Shown piece after piece: positions 4,767 through 42,409 of a stretch of 64,000 nucleotides of DNA. The DNA is taken from the sequence record PZ495249.1; one strand, written 5' to 3'. This DNA comes from a phage. Position 1 is the stretch's first letter, and each line of letters opens with the position of its first letter. The notes under the pieces were generated by a model that saw only the letters and a program-made list of their open reading frames with translations, searched no databases and was not told where the DNA came from. Both the position numbers and the translations under genes were made by a program.

Positions 4767-4817
4767 TTTCTTTTCTTCCTGTTATGCGGTGCGCCTCTCG
4801 CCTCGCCTTGTGTAGTA

Positions 4818-4846
4818 ATATTAGATCGCCGCCCCTATGCTGTCAA
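4818..4846 (-). promoter_or_regulatory. sigma70-like promoter TTGACA-N17-TAATAT
   Basis: upstream of gene 4563..4766; approximate coordinates. Confidence 0.5.
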
Positions 4847-4887
4847 CTACTACCATAAAATTTTTTATATATATTTCCCTGGTGCTT

Positions 4888-5067
4888 GAAAAATAAAAAA
4901 TTTTTTCACCTGGGAGTTCCCACAAAATTTTTTCGATTAGGTGGATCTCGTTTCGGAAATTTTCCTCTTACGTAAAACTCGTTACAAAAATTTTTCGACC
5001 TGGTAAAATCCGTTGGCGGAAAAAATTGAGATCCTAAAACTCAAATCAGCAAAAAATTTTCCTTGCG
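4888..5067. repeat. phased A-tract/T-tract array (AAAA(A)TTTT(T)C about every 30-35 bp, six copies)
   Basis: direct reading of the sequence; candidate intrinsically bent DNA. Confidence 0.5.
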
Positions 5068-5133
5068 CTTTCCTTGGTGTGGTGTATAGTGGTTATCAAG
5101 CCGCCACGGTGGAGGCACAAAGAGGAAATAACC

Positions 5134-5244
5134 ATGAAAGTTTACAGTGTATATGATGACGAAATTTGCAACCATTGCTATCACCCTAAGCGCTTAAAGT
5201 GGTGTTTTATCTGTAAGCAAGAGATGCAAAAACAGGGTAAATAG
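5134..5244 (+). CDS. micro-ORF with CxxC..CxxC zinc-ribbon pattern (36 aa)
   Basis: hand-called ORF; AGAGGA RBS; lone rightward ORF inside the non-coding control region. Confidence 0.3.
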   Translation: MKVYSVYDDEICNHCYHPKRLKWCFICKQEMQKQGK

Positions 5245-5246
5245 TG

Positions 5247-5276
5247 TTGACACGCCCCAGGGAACGGGGCTATAAT
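5247..5276 (+). promoter_or_regulatory. sigma70 consensus promoter TTGACA-N18-TATAAT (rightward)
   Basis: perfect hexamers; no obvious CDS downstream; fires into the repeat region. Confidence 0.5.
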
Positions 5277-5494
5277 CACCACATACAGAAGAGGACACGC
5301 CACCCCACGGCGTAAAGGCGGGGCTAACATACCAGGGCGCTGGTTGCAAGGTGGATCGCCGGTAGCTCGCCTCAAAAAAGTTTTGTAAAGATTGAATAAA
5401 GTGCTTGCGTCCTGGGTTGGTTGTGTTATTATGTATACATGGACAGGGGAACGGGGCTGGCGAGACAATCACCGGAGCTGCCCGTCATTCTGGA

Positions 5495-5595
5495 AATGCG
5501 AATGAGTCTCTTTTCGGTTTGTAGATGAGAATGATTCTCATTCAACTTTATAAACGAGAATGATTATCACTTGCAAATGAGAATGCTTATCATAC
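5495..5595. repeat. four operator-like near-palindromes GAGAATG(A/C)TT(C/A)TCA
   Basis: four spaced copies of an imperfect inverted repeat in about 100 bp. Confidence 0.5.
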
Positions 5596-5613
5596 TCATC
5601 CGGCAAATTTTCG

Positions 5614-5820
5614 AGAATTTTAAATTTTGCTTTTGGAAAAATGCAGATCGAAAAGTTAAAAAACTTTTAATAATTGGGGAATTTTTTGAAAATTTTAAAT
5701 TTTGGTTTTGGATTTTTCTGTGGTAAGATGCAGAAAAGTTTTAAATAATTCAGGGAAATTTTAAATTTTGCTTTTCAATATTTATTGAGCAACCTGGAGA
5801 AAAGTTTTAAATAGTTTGAG
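5614..5820. repeat. three tandem AT-rich direct repeats of about 70 bp
   Basis: GARAATTTTAAATTTTGSTTTTGG plus CAGAAAAGTTTTAAATA recur three times in the same order. Confidence 0.55.
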
Positions 5821-6049
5821 AGTGATTTTCAAAGTTTGTTTCCATATTGTTCGGACTGAGATGGAAATAGATTATCAAGTTATTACAACAACTTACAAGA
5901 TTGCTTAGAGTTTGATTTAAATATGGTGTTAAGAAGTTCAAACTGTGTCTATGAATTTACTGGTATGTTGGAGGTGAGGCTCCGAAATATTGAACCCCAC
6001 ACCCCTTATTCTAAAAACGAAAATTTTTAAAATATCAGATAATATCAGG

Positions 6050-6667
6050 TTAGCCTAACATCGGCAAGAAAAGTCGGTCGCCACTTAGAATTAGTTCTCT
6101 TTGAATTAATCCATAGATGACAAACCCGTGACCACACTTCTTATCCTCAGCATGAATCACATCGTAATAATCCATACCTAACTCCTGGTAGTGATAACCG
6201 TCGAAGTCTAACAGTGCAATTTTCTCACCATCATTAACCCGTTTCCATAAGTCTTTGAATGTATCTGTTTGCACCACTGCACGGGCGTACATTGGGAAGT
6301 ACAGGTTTCGACGGGCAGTGATGTAATCCAGTTTCTTGCCATCCCAGACACTATACAGAGGCTTTCTGCCTTTACCCATAGGGTAGCGTTCTGCTCTCCA
6401 GTTAGCCCAACCTGCTCGCGCCCATGTGTAATACGCTTCGGTTGGATCACCGTTCTCATCTACGTGCTCTTCGTACACTTTACTAAATTGCCAGGCGTTC
6501 TCCATATTCTTGGCTACAATGCCACCATACATAGGTATATCGCGCAGGTAGAACGGGCTAAGCTGCTGTCCGTATCCTTCTTTATCACGGCTGGTAGTGT
6601 TGACCACCTTAAACCCTTCCGGTACTTTGTCCCGCATACCAACCACGATTAGATTATCAAACTTCAT
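6050..6667 (-). CDS. hypothetical protein (205 aa)
   Basis: track ORF 6050..6739 trimmed to internal Met with GGAG-N6-ATG. Confidence 0.6.
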   Translation of the reverse strand: MKFDNLIVVGMRDKVPEGFKVVNTTSRDKEGYGQQLSPFYLRDIPMYGGIVAKNMENAWQFSKVYEEHVDENGDPTEAYYTWARAGWANWRAERYPMGKGRKPLYSVWDGKKLDYITARRNLYFPMYARAVVQTDTFKDLWKRVNDGEKIALLDFDGYHYQELGMDYYDVIHAEDKKCGHGFVIYGLIQRELILSGDRLFLPMLG

Positions 6668-7139: not shown

Positions 7140-8264
7140 TCACATAATCAGTGACAGGTTTGCACTTCGCGTTGTGCTTGGTTCCAGTACCACACGGAAG
7201 CTGTCGCCTGGTTCATCGCTGTACACCACCAGTTTACCACCTGCAATCAGGTCTGTCTTCCACTTCGTGGCGTTCAGGTGAATGCGTGGATCACCTTCAT
7301 CATCAATGATGACTGCGGAACATTCTTCGAATGCTTCCTGATTGTCCTGCGTTGCCGGACGCAGATAAACATCGAGGGTTTTGATGCCACTCAGGAATGA
7401 CATTGGATTGAATCCATGCCAGTTGCTAACCCAGTTCACTTCTGCCAGTTTACCGTTCACGGTGATATTGCTGATATCCCACTTGGCTTCGCCGCCCAGG
7501 GAAATACCCATCATATCCAGACACGCTTTGAAGGTCATGTCTTTGTAGAAGTTAAGCTCTTCCACGATGCCTTGAATCACATCGAAGGAGAGTTCCAAAC
7601 TCACATCCCACAGACGCTGGAAGCTTGCCTGATGCTCTTTATCATCGAGATTCTTATCCAGATAATCGAGCATTGTCTCCAGGGAGATCTTATCATAGTT
7701 GAAGCTGTAGAAGATACGGCTCGGACGGTTGATAAAGAACTCGGAGATGAAGCCGCTATTCTTGGTCAGAATAAACAGCTTGTTACCACTGCCTGTACCA
7801 TCCAAAAGCGTTAACAGCGCTTCCTGATCCTGTTTCTTCTCGTACACTTTGTCAAACTCATCGAAGATGACAATTGCTTTCTCTGCAATCTTGCTCATCA
7901 GTTCAATGAAATTGGCATCGCTATACGCTTGCGTTACCATAATAACTGGTAAACCCTCTGCTGCCAGTTTACGGCTAATCACCTTAGCCAGCATGGTTTT
8001 ACCGCTACCCTTTGTGCCGGATAAGAGAACACCTGTGTTCTTGCCCTGCTCCGCACGACGCTTGTAGGTAGAGATGATGTGCGATGCACGTTTCTCTGTT
8101 TCACCATACAGGACGCTTGGTACTCCTGTCAAATCCCCACGACTAAGGAAGTAGTTACCCAGTGGATCACGGCTCACTGTCCAGAAACCAGCAGGGAGAG
8201 TTTCGCTCTTGACACCTGCCTCTTTGTCCACTACTGCGATATCACCATAAATTGTGTATGACAC
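7140..8264 (-). CDS. P-loop ATPase (AAA-like), paralog of 24796..25956
   Basis: Walker A GTKGSGKT and Walker B IVIFDEFD; long blocks conserved with the 24796 gene product. Confidence 0.75.
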   Translation of the reverse strand: MSYTIYGDIAVVDKEAGVKSETLPAGFWTVSRDPLGNYFLSRGDLTGVPSVLYGETEKRASHIISTYKRRAEQGKNTGVLLSGTKGSGKTMLAKVISRKLAAEGLPVIMVTQAYSDANFIELMSKIAEKAIVIFDEFDKVYEKKQDQEALLTLLDGTGSGNKLFILTKNSGFISEFFINRPSRIFYSFNYDKISLETMLDYLDKNLDDKEHQASFQRLWDVSLELSFDVIQGIVEELNFYKDMTFKACLDMMGISLGGEAKWDISNITVNGKLAEVNWVSNWHGFNPMSFLSGIKTLDVYLRPATQDNQEAFEECSAVIIDDEGDPRIHLNATKWKTDLIAGGKLVVYSDEPGDSFRVVLEPSTTRSANLSLIM

Positions 8265-24728: not shown

Positions 24729-24795
24729 GAGTTGATTTTCACAGGGGAGGTTGATATACTTCCCCTACACTTTAAAGAGAAAGAAGGAGAAATAC

Positions 24796-25956
24796 ATGTT
24801 CACACAATTCGGTAGCCAAATCTTCCTGCGTCAGAAATCCGGTGTTGATATCGACGTAATTCCAGCGGGTACTTATGGTATCGGCGTTACAATGGAAGGT
24901 GCGTTTTATCTGTACCCTAAAAACGATATGGAAGTGCCAGCCGTAACCTACGGCGACACAGATGACAAGTCCGAACGTATCATCAAGACGTTCCTGAGCC
25001 GTGATGGTAAGAACACTGGTGTTCTCCTGGAAGGTACTAAAGGCAGTGGTAAAACCCTGCAAGCGAAAATGCTGTCAGTGGCACTGCGTAAACAGGGCAT
25101 CCCTACCATCTCCATCGGTAGCCCGTTCAACGGTGAAGCGTTCATCAACTTCATGTCGAAAATCAAACAGCCGATCATGGTGATGGTGGATGAATTCGAT
25201 AAGCTTTATGCTGAGAAAGAACACCAGGACGGTCTGCTTACTCTGCTGGATGGTGTCGGTGGTTACAACAAACTGTTCGTTCTGACCAAAAACGATGGTT
25301 ATGTTTCTGAATTCCTGCGCAACCGACCAAGCCGTATCTTCTATAGCTTTAGCTATAAGAAACTGCCTAAGTCTACGCTGGATGATTACCTGGATAAAAA
25401 CCTGGTAAACAAAGCGTTCGTTGCAGACTTCGAAACTCTGTACAACCTGTCAGCAGATCTGAACTTCGACGTAATTCAGTCGCTGGTAGAAGAACTGAAC
25501 CGTTACCCTGACGATAAGTTCTCTGATGCGCTGAACCTGATGGGTATTTCGATCAACGAAGGTAGCCGTTCTGCCAAAGAGATTAAAACTCTGAAAGTGA
25601 ATGGTGTAGATCGTCTGCAAGATGTCCGTGGATTCGATCTGTCTGGAATGTCAGCACAGTCCCTGTTCCAGGGCGCTAAGTTCCAGATCAACGTAGACCA
25701 CAAAGAAGGTACTGAACGTCTGCCTAACATGAAAGGTGTTGTTACCCTTGACCAGCAGGACGCTGACGGCGATTGGTACTATGATTGCGACAAGATCTTC
25801 ATCAGCTACGATGAGAAGAGCATTAAGAGCATGGGCGGAGATGGTTATCACTTCGTGTTCGCTCAGGGCGATAACGTCATTGAGATTGAGGTGAAACAGA
25901 AAGAAACCCTCAACTACATGGATTACGCCTTCTCAGGCGCAGGTTACAACTACTAA
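24796..25956 (+). CDS. P-loop ATPase (AAA-like), paralog of 7140..8264
   Basis: track ORF 24751..25956 trimmed to Met with AAGGAGAAA RBS; Walker A GTKGSGKT; Walker B VMVDEFD. Confidence 0.75.
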   Translation: MFTQFGSQIFLRQKSGVDIDVIPAGTYGIGVTMEGAFYLYPKNDMEVPAVTYGDTDDKSERIIKTFLSRDGKNTGVLLEGTKGSGKTLQAKMLSVALRKQGIPTISIGSPFNGEAFINFMSKIKQPIMVMVDEFDKLYAEKEHQDGLLTLLDGVGGYNKLFVLTKNDGYVSEFLRNRPSRIFYSFSYKKLPKSTLDDYLDKNLVNKAFVADFETLYNLSADLNFDVIQSLVEELNRYPDDKFSDALNLMGISINEGSRSAKEIKTLKVNGVDRLQDVRGFDLSGMSAQSLFQGAKFQINVDHKEGTERLPNMKGVVTLDQQDADGDWYYDCDKIFISYDEKSIKSMGGDGYHFVFAQGDNVIEIEVKQKETLNYMDYAFSGAGYNY

Positions 25957-40639: not shown

Positions 40640-42409
40640 GTGACACATGTTGTAAATAAGTACGGCTTTAATATTGATTTGAGTCGAGAAGGTCACACTG
40701 GTTGTCCACGTTGTATGAAGAATGGTAGAGATCGTTCACAGAATAACTTGATGGTATATGGGTTAGATAGTGGCGGTGAGCACAAAGGAGCACACTGCTT
40801 CTCATGCGAATTTACCATTCCGAGTCAAGAATGGTTGGATGAACACGGTGAAGAAATTGAAGAGGAGGATATCTTGGGAAGCGAGTTCAACCCACAAATT
40901 CATGATAAACTGAAAGAACAAACCGGAACAAACCCACGAGGCTATCGTGGAATCCGAGAAGATATTTCAAAACCCCTGGGTGTACGTTATGGTTATGATG
41001 CTGAAACAGGCAATGTGACAGACACATATTATCCAACCACTAAGAGCTATCAGATCGCAGGTTATAAACACCGCATTGATCCGAAAGACTTTACGCAACC
41101 CGTAGGGGAAACAGGTAAAGAATGTGACCTGTTCGGTGAGTTTAAATATCGAAACCACAGTGGTACAATCGTCATCGTAGGTGGTGAGCATGACATGCTT
41201 GCAGCTACACAGATGCTGATGGATCATAACAAAGGTGGTAAATACCCTGTGCCAGCCGTTGTCTCTGGTACATGCGGTGAGAGTTCCCTGCACAAGCAAC
41301 TGCAATCACGCTACAAGTTCCTTGATCAGTTCAAGAAAATCATTCTCTGCATGGACAATGATGATGCTGGTAGAGCAGCAGTAGAGAAGTGTGTTAAGAT
41401 TCTACCTCGCAACAAAGTGTACGTGATGGACTTAACTGAGGTTAAAGATCCTAATCAGGCACTTGAAGAAGGGAAGGTTGATCACTTCATTGACCGATTC
41501 TTTAAAGCGAAGATGTACACCCCTGCTGGTGTATACGCATCAAACGTCCTGTACGAGGCTGCATTGGAATGTTTGGAGGCTAAGGTCATAACCCTACCGC
41601 CATTCATGCGACAGGCTGCTAACATGCTTGGAGGCGGTTTGGTGGAGGAAGAGATTACTGTTATTCTGGCTAAAACCAGTATCGGTAAAACTCTCCTGGT
41701 GAATGAGATCACCAAACACATTATCATGGCGCACCCAGAGCATACTCTTGGCGTTCTTTCCTTGGAGGCAACGTACAAGAAGTATTCTCGTAACTTGCTG
41801 TCATCTTTCCTGCACATTCCTCTGCACCGTAAAACGGCAGAAGAGAAACAGGAGATCCTGAAAGCGAATGAGGAGAGAATTCGTAACTTCTACGAGCACG
41901 AAGACGGCACTCCACGTTTCTACGTGTGTGATGACCGAGGAGCTAACGTAGACGTTATCAAGGAAAAGGTTCTGGAGATGATCATCTACTTCGGAGTGAC
42001 AATCCTTGTTATCGACCCTTATTCTGACTTGCTTTCTGGTATGGATGTTTCCGCGCAGGAAGAACTCGCAACTTGGCTGAAACGTATTATGAAAGAGTAC
42101 GGTATCACTATTATCGTAATCTCTCACGTTAAGAAGTCTTCCAATAACAGCAATGAACACATTGTGGAAGATGATGCAATGGGTAGTAGCTTCCTGGCTA
42201 AAGGTGCTGGTATCACCATCGCACTGGAACGTGACAAACAAGCAGAAGATCCAATGGAACGAAACCGTACATATTGCTACATCCTCAAGAACCGTGAGTT
42301 CTCTGAGACAGGTGCAGCAGGTAGTTTCTTCTATGAAATCAAGACTGCTACCCTTCATGATTACGATCAGTACATGAACAAACTGCCTGTACCCGAAGGT
42401 AGTTATTAA
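40640..42409 (+). CDS. bifunctional DNA primase/helicase (T7 gp4-like), GTG start
   Basis: N-terminal Cys4 zinc ribbon; TOPRIM-like acidic motifs (MDNDDAG); C-terminal P-loop KTSIGKT. Confidence 0.85.
   Translation: MTHVVNKYGFNIDLSREGHTGCPRCMKNGRDRSQNNLMVYGLDSGGEHKGAHCFSCEFTIPSQEWLDEHGEEIEEEDILGSEFNPQIHDKLKEQTGTNPRGYRGIREDISKPLGVRYGYDAETGNVTDTYYPTTKSYQIAGYKHRIDPKDFTQPVGETGKECDLFGEFKYRNHSGTIVIVGGEHDMLAATQMLMDHNKGGKYPVPAVVSGTCGESSLHKQLQSRYKFLDQFKKIILCMDNDDAGRAAVEKCVKILPRNKVYVMDLTEVKDPNQALEEGKVDHFIDRFFKAKMYTPAGVYASNVLYEAALECLEAKVITLPPFMRQAANMLGGGLVEEEITVILAKTSIGKTLLVNEITKHIIMAHPEHTLGVLSLEATYKKYSRNLLSSFLHIPLHRKTAEEKQEILKANEERIRNFYEHEDGTPRFYVCDDRGANVDVIKEKVLEMIIYFGVTILVIDPYSDLLSGMDVSAQEELATWLKRIMKEYGITIIVISHVKKSSNNSNEHIVEDDAMGSSFLAKGAGITIALERDKQAEDPMERNRTYCYILKNREFSETGAAGSFFYEIKTATLHDYDQYMNKLPVPEGSY

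Follow-up and report, generated by a model that had tools for sequence, protein, structure and literature searches.

Genomic setting and conservation of the hub

The subject of this report is a non-coding locus, here termed the hub, in a 64,000-nt stretch of phage DNA (sequence record PZ495249.1; the whole stretch is referred to as the window). The hub spans positions 4767–6049 and is the sole gap of at least 250 nt in the window that lacks an open reading frame (ORF) of at least 60 aa (ATG or GTG start), in agreement with an initial annotation, made from the sequence, which had seen no convincing long ORF there. All of the elements listed in that annotation were recovered in place and above chance. 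What it had missed is the most constrained content of the locus, namely two conserved structured RNAs (RNA1 and RNA2), each standing behind a rightward promoter of the host (sigma70) type (P1 and P2, respectively). The coordinates of these and all other features are collected in Table 1.

By megablast, the window phage is a phAPEC8-like myovirus of the Stephanstirmvirinae; the window is ∼82 % identical to the Klebsiella phages KP2025, phi1_175008 and FKP3, and the phage therefore counts as a new species. Segment 5240–5600 matches 397 phage records at 72–85 % nucleotide identity, and the phages concerned include the Stephanstirmvirinae together with most genera of the Vequintavirinae (Certrevirus CR3/phiTE, Seunavirus SSE121, Mydovirus KB57, Henunavirus, Serratia phage Kashira and the rV5-like FV3). 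In each relative the homologue of the hub is an unannotated gap of 0.9–1.3 kb within a leftward array, and the elements follow a shared order: a slot for a small rightward ORF, which is variable; P1 and RNA1; P2 and RNA2; two to four palindromes 29 bp apart; three tandem units of 63–78 bp; and finally ∼200–300 bp with more short repeats before the next leftward gene. The gene on the left flank (phrog_4190) keeps its synteny at just 44–56 % amino-acid identity, and the other neighbours show 37–73 %. As the core retains 72–85 % identity whilst neighbouring proteins retain 37–73 %, the non-coding core is more constrained than the genes nearby. The hub is best explained as a non-coding locus with a control function that rV5-like and phAPEC8-like phages have inherited vertically.

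The region of the minus-strand ORFs carries 1-, 5- and 6-nt indels in the homologues, which rule out coding, and the minus-strand TTG/GTG ORFs at 5181–5472 gave no Pfam or PHROG match; they were rejected on both grounds. For the rV5-like and phAPEC8-like phages we found in the literature neither a defined origin, packaging (pac) site or non-coding RNA, nor anything on origins or non-coding RNAs that explains the gap; the map in the rV5 genome paper marks a 'non-coding' box without comment (PMC3606486).

Table 1. Features of the hub and gene order of the window
Feature	Position	Strand	Remarks
Sigma70-like promoter, TTGACA-17-TAATAT	4818–4846	−	Serves gene 4766–4563; left hub edge
A/T-tract array, seven AAAATTTTTT(C)-type motifs	4853–5062		
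Micro-ORF, 36 aa, CxxC-N8-CxxC	5134–5244	+	Ribosome-binding site AGAGGA
Promoter P1, TTGACA-18-TATAAT	5247–5276 (hexamers 5247–5252 and 5271–5276)	+	Consensus score 12/12; conserved in relatives
RNA1	5283–5373; conserved core 5298–5365 (∼70 nt)	+	Predicted pseudoknot plus hairpin
RNA1 stem S1	5298–5301 with 5309–5312	+	Invariant CGCC/GGCG
RNA1 stem S2	5303–5306 with 5320–5323	+	CCCC/GGGG
RNA1 hairpin	5324–5350	+	Variable apex
RNA1 invariant 3′ segment	5350–5365	+	GGUGGAUCGCCGGUAG
Promoter P2, TTGCGT-16-TATTAT	5405–5432	+	Extended −10 TG at 5424–5425; conserved in relatives
RNA2, 52-nt hairpin from predicted P2 start	5437–5488	+	5′ AUGG(A)C pairs with 3′ GUCAU
RNA2 apical loop, GAGACAAUCAC	5462–5472	+	Invariant GAGACAAnCAC
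Fur-box-like 7-1-7 palindromes, TGAGAATnATTCTCA	5497 (weak), 5526, 5555, 5578 (array 5497–5592)		Spacing 29, 29 and 23 bp
Fifth palindrome copy	5817–5831		Degenerate
Three tandem AT-rich units, AAATTTTAAATTTTGSTTTTGG...GAAAAGTTTTAAATA	5615–5675, 5690–5750, 5756–5816		Spacing 75 and 66 bp
Candidate unwinding element	5650–5850		Lowest duplex stability in the 64 kb
Promoter-like site, TTGCCG-17-TATTAT with TG	6039–6067	−	Points into hub
Small early genes	1 to ∼11.5 kb	leftward	
Nucleotide-metabolism and replication module	12–46 kb	rightward	NadR, helicase, primase/helicase, DNA polymerase
Tail genes	48–64 kb	leftward	
AAA ATPase, phrog_2376	7140–8264	−	Paralogue of 24751–25956
AAA ATPase, phrog_2376	24751–25956	+	Paralogue of 7140–8264

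P1 and RNA1

The initial annotation had described P1 as a perfect rightward promoter with no obvious coding sequence. Its match to the consensus is indeed complete, and no coding gene follows it, but the promoter stands before a conserved structured RNA, and sequence conservation begins at the predicted P1 start (∼5283). The P1 spacer itself holds a GC hairpin (5254–5270), the pairing of which is kept in relatives by compensatory and G-U changes; it probably serves as terminator for the ORF upstream and overlaps P1. A 12-mer, GGGAACGGGGCT, is common to the spacer hairpin and the 5′ arm of RNA2 (5444–5458; repeat D5), and as a duplication it is seen in the window lineage only, which suggests a local duplication or gene conversion.

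Conservation of RNA1 is near-absolute over GCCACCCCACGGCGnAAAGGCGGGGCUAAC and GGUGRAUCGCCGGUAG, and frame-breaking indels are limited to one hairpin apex. Changes that do occur keep the predicted pairing: an Erwinia phage turns the S2 stem CCCC/GGGG into CCAA/UUGG, at hairpin pair 5329:5345, 22 sequences have A-U and 15 have G-C, with two more positions varying, and phi1_175008 has U-A at a hairpin position where others have A-U. The supported CCCC/GGGG stem and the invariant CGCC/GGCG stem together give an H-type pseudoknot. Across the alignment 96.7 % of cells are paired (27–54 % in slid controls), and four pairs show double changes compared with 1.1 in shuffles (0 of 500 shuffles reached this). 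The covariance model of RNA1 has a single match in the window (5277–5380, 110 bits). Support for the structures of both RNA1 and RNA2 is thin in that the sequences vary little, and the thermodynamic z-score of RNA1 (+0.3) is unremarkable. Two further pairings were tried and rejected: a closing stem between the 5′ leader and 3′ tail of RNA1, for which there is no consistent covariation and where the tail diverges between clades, and a long-range GGCGG/UCGCC helix proposed by RNAalifold, which is broken in the Erwinia phage that compensates CCCC/GGGG instead.

H-type pseudoknots are known from the preQ1-I, SAM-II and fluoride riboswitch aptamers, and the put RNAs of phage HK022 act in cis. RNA1 is similar in having a 4-bp S1, a 1-nt L1, a 4-bp S2 and an A-rich L3 directly after an early promoter, but differs from riboswitch aptamers and put RNAs in that it has no Rfam match at E ≤ 10 and no regulated gene downstream. 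A search of the 64 kb against Rfam 15 returned no match at gathering score and four chance-level matches at E ≤ 10, none of them on RNA1 or RNA2. As no E. coli sequence matched 5283–5500, we also rejected the idea that either RNA is a homologue or mimic of a host RNA; the RNA1 and RNA2 motifs are thus without a known family. RNA1 carries several GGA/Shine–Dalgarno-like motifs. No terminator-like site was found after P1 or P2, leaving both RNAs without a terminator or a defined 3′ end. The type III antitoxin mimic of phage phiTE (pseudo-ToxI) was considered as well and belongs to a different locus: the phiTE escape locus lies at 106.7 kb, the hub homologue at 39.6 kb.

The RNA1 core pattern is essentially confined to phage contigs of 145–152 kb. 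Among 185,579 genomes it was found in two contigs of metagenome-assembled genomes, one of which (L025) is a small, hub-bearing, phage-like fragment, whilst the other (L026) is not matched by the RNA1 model. Within the hub-bearing phages RNA1 is absent from rV5/FV3; in its place, FV3 (L008, ∼1290–1430) has a second promoter, an RNA2-like hairpin (loop GAGACAACCAC) and a Fur-like site. In Raoultella phage Ro1 (L022, 6420–7013) a 197-aa ORF with its own ribosome-binding site lies between RNA1 and RNA2. This ORF is inserted directly after the RNA1 core (...GATCGCTGGTA|C) on the same strand and is therefore placed for transcription from P1; it has no Pfam match and could represent a mobile gene of the homing type exploiting P1. 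In SSE121 and FBKp34, genes for HNH endonucleases are found on the flanks of the hub. Because RNA1 is missing from rV5/FV3 and split from RNA2 by a gene in Ro1, it is separable from the core, and it probably serves a further purpose independent of it, either in trans or as a leader.

P2 and RNA2

At P2, too, conservation begins at the predicted transcription start. Nearly all relatives (e.g. L004, L006 and L007) carry a direct repeat, TGTAAAGA-N3-TGTAAAGA (GTAAA-N5-GTAAA), upstream of the P2 −35 hexamer, with a spacing that we take to match that of the CpxR box. The repeat is exact in relatives, degenerate in the window (5384–5398) and not enriched window-wide, and a CpxR-like site was accordingly rejected as an element of the window.

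RNA2 folds in most relatives into one extended hairpin, in which the 5′ end AURGCG pairs with CGYYAU and the inner stem varies by clade (GCG/CGC, UCG/CGA or CCCGG/CCGGG). A covariance model built from two Vequintavirinae clades matches the window with 24.7 bits (E = 4 × 10−4) and recovers most hub-bearing loci at E below 0.01, a few giving a weaker match or none. In the model-fitted alignment 85.6 % of cells are paired, compared with 37–51 % in slid controls; two pairs covary (GC11/AU8/GU2 and CG18/GC3/UA3), and G-U pairs are frequent, which is consistent with the + strand only. The alignment leans to the model and two slid controls equal its covariation score, and for these reasons we consider RNA2 a conserved structured RNA with moderate support. 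RNAalifold on a sequence-only alignment missed the long hairpin, for which per-sequence folding and the covariance model were needed, and thermodynamic z-scores (−4.0 to +1.0) are unremarkable. No complement of the RNA2 loop beyond chance was found within the window.

In KB57-like phages (L020:4800–5120 (−) and L010:4334–4379 (−)) we observed a second module ∼7 kb from the hubs, in an ordinary intergenic region among leftward genes. Its elements are a hairpin resembling a terminator, a promoter, a hairpin of RNA2 type (loop AGGAAAGUCA) and a single Fur-like palindrome (TGAGAATTACTCTCA), with no 70-bp units, which suggests that 'hairpin plus Fur box' is a reusable cassette.

Palindromes resembling Fur boxes

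The four near-palindromes noted initially are present, in a 23-nt unit repeated at 5490, 5519, 5548 and 5571. The copy at 5526–5540 is a perfect TGAGAATGATTCTCA, those at 5555 and 5578 have two mismatches and that at 5497 has three. Half-sites degenerate independently and without compensation, indicating that these are DNA sites for protein binding rather than RNA hairpins, and the hairpin alternative was rejected for this reason.

The palindromes share the 7-1-7 geometry of Fur boxes (19-bp iron box, GATAATGATAATCATTATC; 7-1-7 consensus, TGATAATnATTATCA), and 5526–5540, 5555–5569 and 5578–5592 each agree with the consensus at 12 of 14 defined positions. The 15-mer at 5526–5540, TGAGAATGATTCTCA, has been reported as the Fur box of a Fur-repressed E. 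faecalis operon (EF3082-85), and relatives carry variants (TGAGAACGATTCTCA) that have been reported for feoAB (PMC6056675); a list of Gram-negative iron boxes includes GATAATGAGAATCATTATT (PMC10665472). We scored the window with a crude matrix made from 11 iron boxes listed in PMC10665472, the training sites of which score 14.3–28.2 bits. The three palindromes rank first to third of all positions in the 64 kb (17.0, 16.0 and 15.7 bits; maximum of 20 shuffles, 15.4) and thus fall in the range of the training sites. Two isolated Fur-like sites off the hub (612–626 and 41329–41347; 14.2 and 14.4 bits) are within the range of shuffled sequence. Overlapping Fur-like sites 6 bp apart occur at 5521/5527, 5550/5556 and 5573/5579 and likewise in relatives, an arrangement described for E. 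coli Fur clusters (PMC2189734). Every relative examined, and a T5-like phage, carries the pattern; scores overall span 13–25 bits, the strongest site being GATAATGATAATCGTTCTC of FV3 (24.6 bits). In silico the palindromes are indistinguishable from Fur boxes, and we treat them as putative Fur sites. They depart from typical Fur boxes in lying in virulent phage DNA, downstream of promoters and repeated every 29 bp, and their left half-site prefers GAGAAT over GATAAT. No conserved promoter lies over them.

The T5-like phage has AAATGAGAATGATTCTCATT-type palindromes in an array with a spacing of ∼29–35 bp, within a long untranslated stretch. In T5 this is 'Repeat Region 3' of the left terminal repeat, where palE–palJ with DRC are followed by nine DRD beside a presumed injection stop signal; the preprint describing it makes no mention of Fur (10.1101/866236). 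The palE–palJ/DRC array is the counterpart of the hub palindromes, and in both cases lineage-specific direct repeats come next. There are also differences: in T5, DnaA boxes lie upstream and both RNA1 and RNA2 are absent, whereas the hub has no DnaA boxes; the second array of T5 consists of TGTGCAAATCCGACA repeated 8–9 times, that of the hub of three 70-bp units; and the T5 region forms part of a terminal repeat of 10 kb in a siphovirus with two-step DNA injection, whilst the phage bearing the hub is a myophage. Of the hallmarks of the T5 injection stop signal, the IRD′-spacer-IRC′ DnaA pair, DRD and the site in a terminal repeat are all missing from the hub, leaving only the palindromes in common. 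A T5-like phage (L009:1180–1235) and a KB57-like phage (L020:4845–4900 (−)) also share a non-coding motif of ∼35 nt, AGAAYGCGATYYAGGACGTTTTARSGCTATAT, and regulatory DNA modules appear to have been exchanged between these unrelated groups.

Tandem units and duplex stability

The three tandem AT-rich units of ∼70 bp, likewise seen initially, were reproduced with a spacing of 66–75 bp (Tandem Repeats Finder: period 66, 1.9 copies). Exactly three units of similar period follow the palindromes in all five Vequintavirinae relatives examined, and the phAPEC8-like phage tuntematon has two to three copies at irregular spacing. Unit sequence is specific to the lineage (AAAAATTTTTTCG...TCGATCGAGAMCC in Vequintavirinae, AAATTTTAAATTTTGSTTTTGG...GAAAAGTTTTAAATA in the window). 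A conserved array of lineage-specific units is the pattern expected for the sites of a co-evolving phage protein. The units overlap the stability minimum of the window at 5650–5850, where nearest-neighbour free energy is −1.12 to −1.17 kcal/mol per bp (mean −1.34) and AT content is 77–79 %; the minimum is the same at window sizes of 100, 200 and 400 bp. The hub holds one match to the IHF consensus and no DnaA box.

The ends of public record PP357458.1 (L047/L048; the 'circular' Klebsiella phage phi1_175008) fall within this AT-rich part of the hub. Comparison with PQ360875.1 (L049) reveals a 98-bp duplicated overlap at the junction, an untrimmed assembly artefact; we therefore rejected a genome terminus in the hub, as these ends represent a circularization overlap.

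Edges of the hub and neighbouring genes

Phased A/T tracts, of which the initial annotation had counted six, form an array of seven motifs (starts at 4857, 4897, 4924, 4957, 4987, 5020 and 5052) with a spacing of 27–40 bp (mean ∼32). The array is above chance: all four exact matches to AAAATTTTTYS in the 64 kb lie within 4897–5060, where 0.5 is expected for the 64 kb and none of 100 shuffles did the same. The 36-aa zinc-ribbon micro-ORF is also present, its position now being corrected (Table 1), and no homologues of it were found. Both occur only in the window and in L035, a 48-kb metagenome contig (ERZ1034928 NODE-117) that is ∼98–99 % identical to the window across the hub and is the closest relative found for the window phage; the array has no counterpart in other relatives. 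These two, which had headed the list of features in the initial annotation, are the only parts of the hub not conserved outside this lineage, and the array is probably curved DNA forming the upstream part of the micro-ORF cassette. The corresponding slot in relatives holds a member of an 88–100 aa family or of a 56–63 aa DUF7170 family, or is empty. A sub-threshold Rfam match to ArcZ at 4837–4921 (17 bits, E = 1), which rests on 12 nt (AUUUCCCUGGUG) identical to the conserved 3′ region of ArcZ, was dismissed as chance-level. At the right edge, the stretch around the leftward promoter-like site (5991–6048) is 81–86 % conserved in phAPEC8-like phages.

The hub lies inside the leftward early array, ∼6 kb from the helicase/primase/polymerase module. 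Of the two paralogous AAA ATPases, both with weak similarity to clamp-loader and DnaC-like loader families, that at 7140–8264 lies 1.1 kb to the right of the hub, a synteny that is limited to Stephanstirmvirinae. The 64-kb window holds neither terminase nor head genes, and no tRNA or tmRNA genes were found in it (ARAGORN).

Possible functions of the hub

The anatomy of the hub is observed, whereas its function is our interpretation. We tentatively favour, at somewhat less than even confidence, a transcription-activated origin of replication or a control locus, with input from host factors. We do so because the locus is unique, its iterated units are lineage-specific, it contains the stability minimum, promoters without terminators point into the units and the replication module is near. 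Host RNA polymerase would fire from P1 and P2 after injection, and the transcripts, their 5′ ends protected by structure, would continue past the Fur-type boxes and enter the AT-rich region of iterated units; such read-through is proposed since no terminator follows either promoter. There the transcripts may open the duplex or stay as an R-loop primer, in the manner of T4 oriF/oriG, the T7 primary origin and ColE1 RNA II. A phage protein co-evolving with the lineage-specific 70-bp units would bind to them, and the shared palindromes would bind Fur as a conserved host protein that pauses or gates the polymerase or shapes the DNA.

Transcription-primed or -activated origins include T4 oriF/oriG, the T7 primary origin (promoters 1.1A/1.1B plus an AT-rich region) and ColE1 RNA II. 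As in these, the hub promoters point into an AT-rich, easily unwound segment (both are on the + strand, with the stability minimum ∼200 bp downstream), would use host RNA polymerase and lie near early and replication genes; the two tandem promoters resemble those of T7, and the folded 5′ RNA domain upstream resembles that of ColE1 RNA II. The T4, T7 and ColE1 origins differ from the hub in having no Fur-type boxes or triple 70-bp array, and those of T4 rely on MotA-dependent middle promoters. Iteron-type origins (lambda ori, plasmid and P1 origins) offer a second comparison, in that at least three direct repeats adjoin AT-rich DNA in the window and in the five Vequintavirinae relatives, with a lineage-specific repeat sequence suggestive of a co-evolving initiator. 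The hub departs from them in having only three units, of 66–75 bp rather than ∼20 bp, no DnaA boxes and no overlapping or clearly adjoining initiator gene, the AAA ATPase at 7140–8264 being the nearest candidate.

Several points weigh against an origin. Initiation here is a prediction from sequence, and the hub lacks DnaA boxes. GC skew tracks gene orientation only, an observation likewise made by the authors of the rV5 genome (PMC3606486), and was discarded as an origin marker. The conserved leftward promoter at 6067–6039 would direct convergent transcription onto the AT-rich units and oppose their unwinding. The KB57-like module lacks 70-bp units, and thus the combination of promoter, RNA2-like hairpin and Fur box need not be part of an origin; similarly, the T5 counterpart is not thought to be one (10.1101/866236). 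Additionally, the putative Fur boxes are set ∼60 to 155 nt beyond the predicted P2 start and not over a promoter, and priming leaves the extreme conservation of RNA1 unexplained.

The main rival, possible if on balance doubtful, is a trans-acting small-RNA locus, at which RNA1 and RNA2 would be stable RNAs, expressed early from strong promoters of the host type and acting on conserved host machinery or mRNAs, akin to the small stable RNAs of T4 or to phage small RNAs and decoys, and the palindromes and units would be neighbours with no relation to them, for instance operators, a Fur decoy or transcription stops. A conserved host partner would fit the near invariance of RNA1 over two subfamilies and many enterobacterial genera, and the several GGA/Shine–Dalgarno-like motifs are in keeping with such a role. 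RNA1 and RNA2 are moreover separable modules, an RNA2-like module occurs elsewhere without the repeats, and RNA2 combines a 5′-terminal stem with an exposed, invariant 11-nt loop, as antisense and kissing-loop RNAs do. Neither RNA has a terminator or defined 3′ end, though, nor a similar sequence in E. coli, the window offers no complement to the RNA2 loop beyond chance, and the order of RNA2, palindromes and three units, together with the stability minimum, is left unexplained. Fur itself is the centre of another, unlikely, reading, in which the replicated boxes titrate or recruit Fur as a host-factor trap, or make early rightward transcription iron-dependent, with the hub also separating two leftward early operons. 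Titration by multicopy Fur boxes is an established principle (PMC2189734); here the matches are strong and conserved, common to unrelated T5-like phages infecting the same hosts, and degenerate in their half-sites as protein-binding sites rather than RNA hairpins do, and promoters face both ways at the hub edges. T5 degrades host DNA within minutes (10.64898/2026.04.02.716235), so derepressing host genes would be pointless in that infection; furthermore, the boxes overlap no clear promoter, and RNA1, RNA2 and the three units are not accounted for.

A pac site and a hidden gene are both unlikely as the function of the hub. The former, which we hold to be distinctly improbable, would have the three units and bent A/T DNA recognized by the small terminase, as with lambda cosB R1–R3 or SPP1 pacL/pacR. 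As a rule, known pac and cos sites are found beside or inside terminase genes, whereas the hub is set among early genes and the 64 kb contain no terminase or head gene; the sole public record ending in the hub does so by assembly overlap rather than at a terminus. In its favour, the locus is unique, repeat-rich and bent, the T5-like palindromes and repeats lie ≤ ∼600 bp from the end of the terminal repeat, and rV5-like phages, as circularly permuted headful packagers, need a pac site (PMC3475682). Protein-coding genes hidden on the minus strand (5181–5472) or in small rightward ORFs are scarcely credible: in some public records the homologous stretch does have 'hypothetical proteins' annotated over it, but frame-breaking indels in the homologues, the absence of Pfam and PHROG matches and substitutions that track base pairing, not codon positions, all argue otherwise. 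The origin, small-RNA, Fur, pac and hidden-gene readings are partly compatible. With respect to the initial proposal of a functional non-coding region of the origin, packaging or operator kind, such a region fits the conservation, the unique ORF-free gap, the iterated units and the stability minimum; packaging is unlikely for the reasons given, and as operators the palindromes match a host Fur box, not a phage-specific one.

Significance

The kinds of element found in the hub, i.e. structured RNAs, Fur boxes and iterons beside AT-rich DNA, are all known. Previous descriptions appear to be lacking for a Fur-type array in virulent phages, for its being shared with T5 and for the conserved composite architecture. 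A more far-reaching idea, to which we assign low probability, is that the Fur-site array common to two unrelated groups of virulent enterobacterial phages, the rV5/phAPEC8-like myoviruses and T5-like siphoviruses, and set in both between early promoters and lineage-specific repeats, may be an iron-regulator-gated, RNA-primed switch for replication or DNA handling, with RNA1 as a new class of pseudoknotted RNA that would bind a conserved host factor or small molecule. If such a switch existed, the decades-old puzzle of the untranslated T5 region beside the injection stop signal would become directly testable.

Phages of the rV5-like and phAPEC8-like groups are common therapeutic and biocontrol candidates. 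The present analysis supplies exact coordinates and models for two new conserved RNA motifs as well as a candidate origin and unwinding element, and it names Fur as a concrete candidate host factor, both for these phages and for the T5 repeat region. Should the hub be an origin, it would provide a handle for engineering and for phage-dependent replicons; should the RNAs act in trans, they would be among the most conserved phage-encoded regulatory RNAs known for Enterobacterales.

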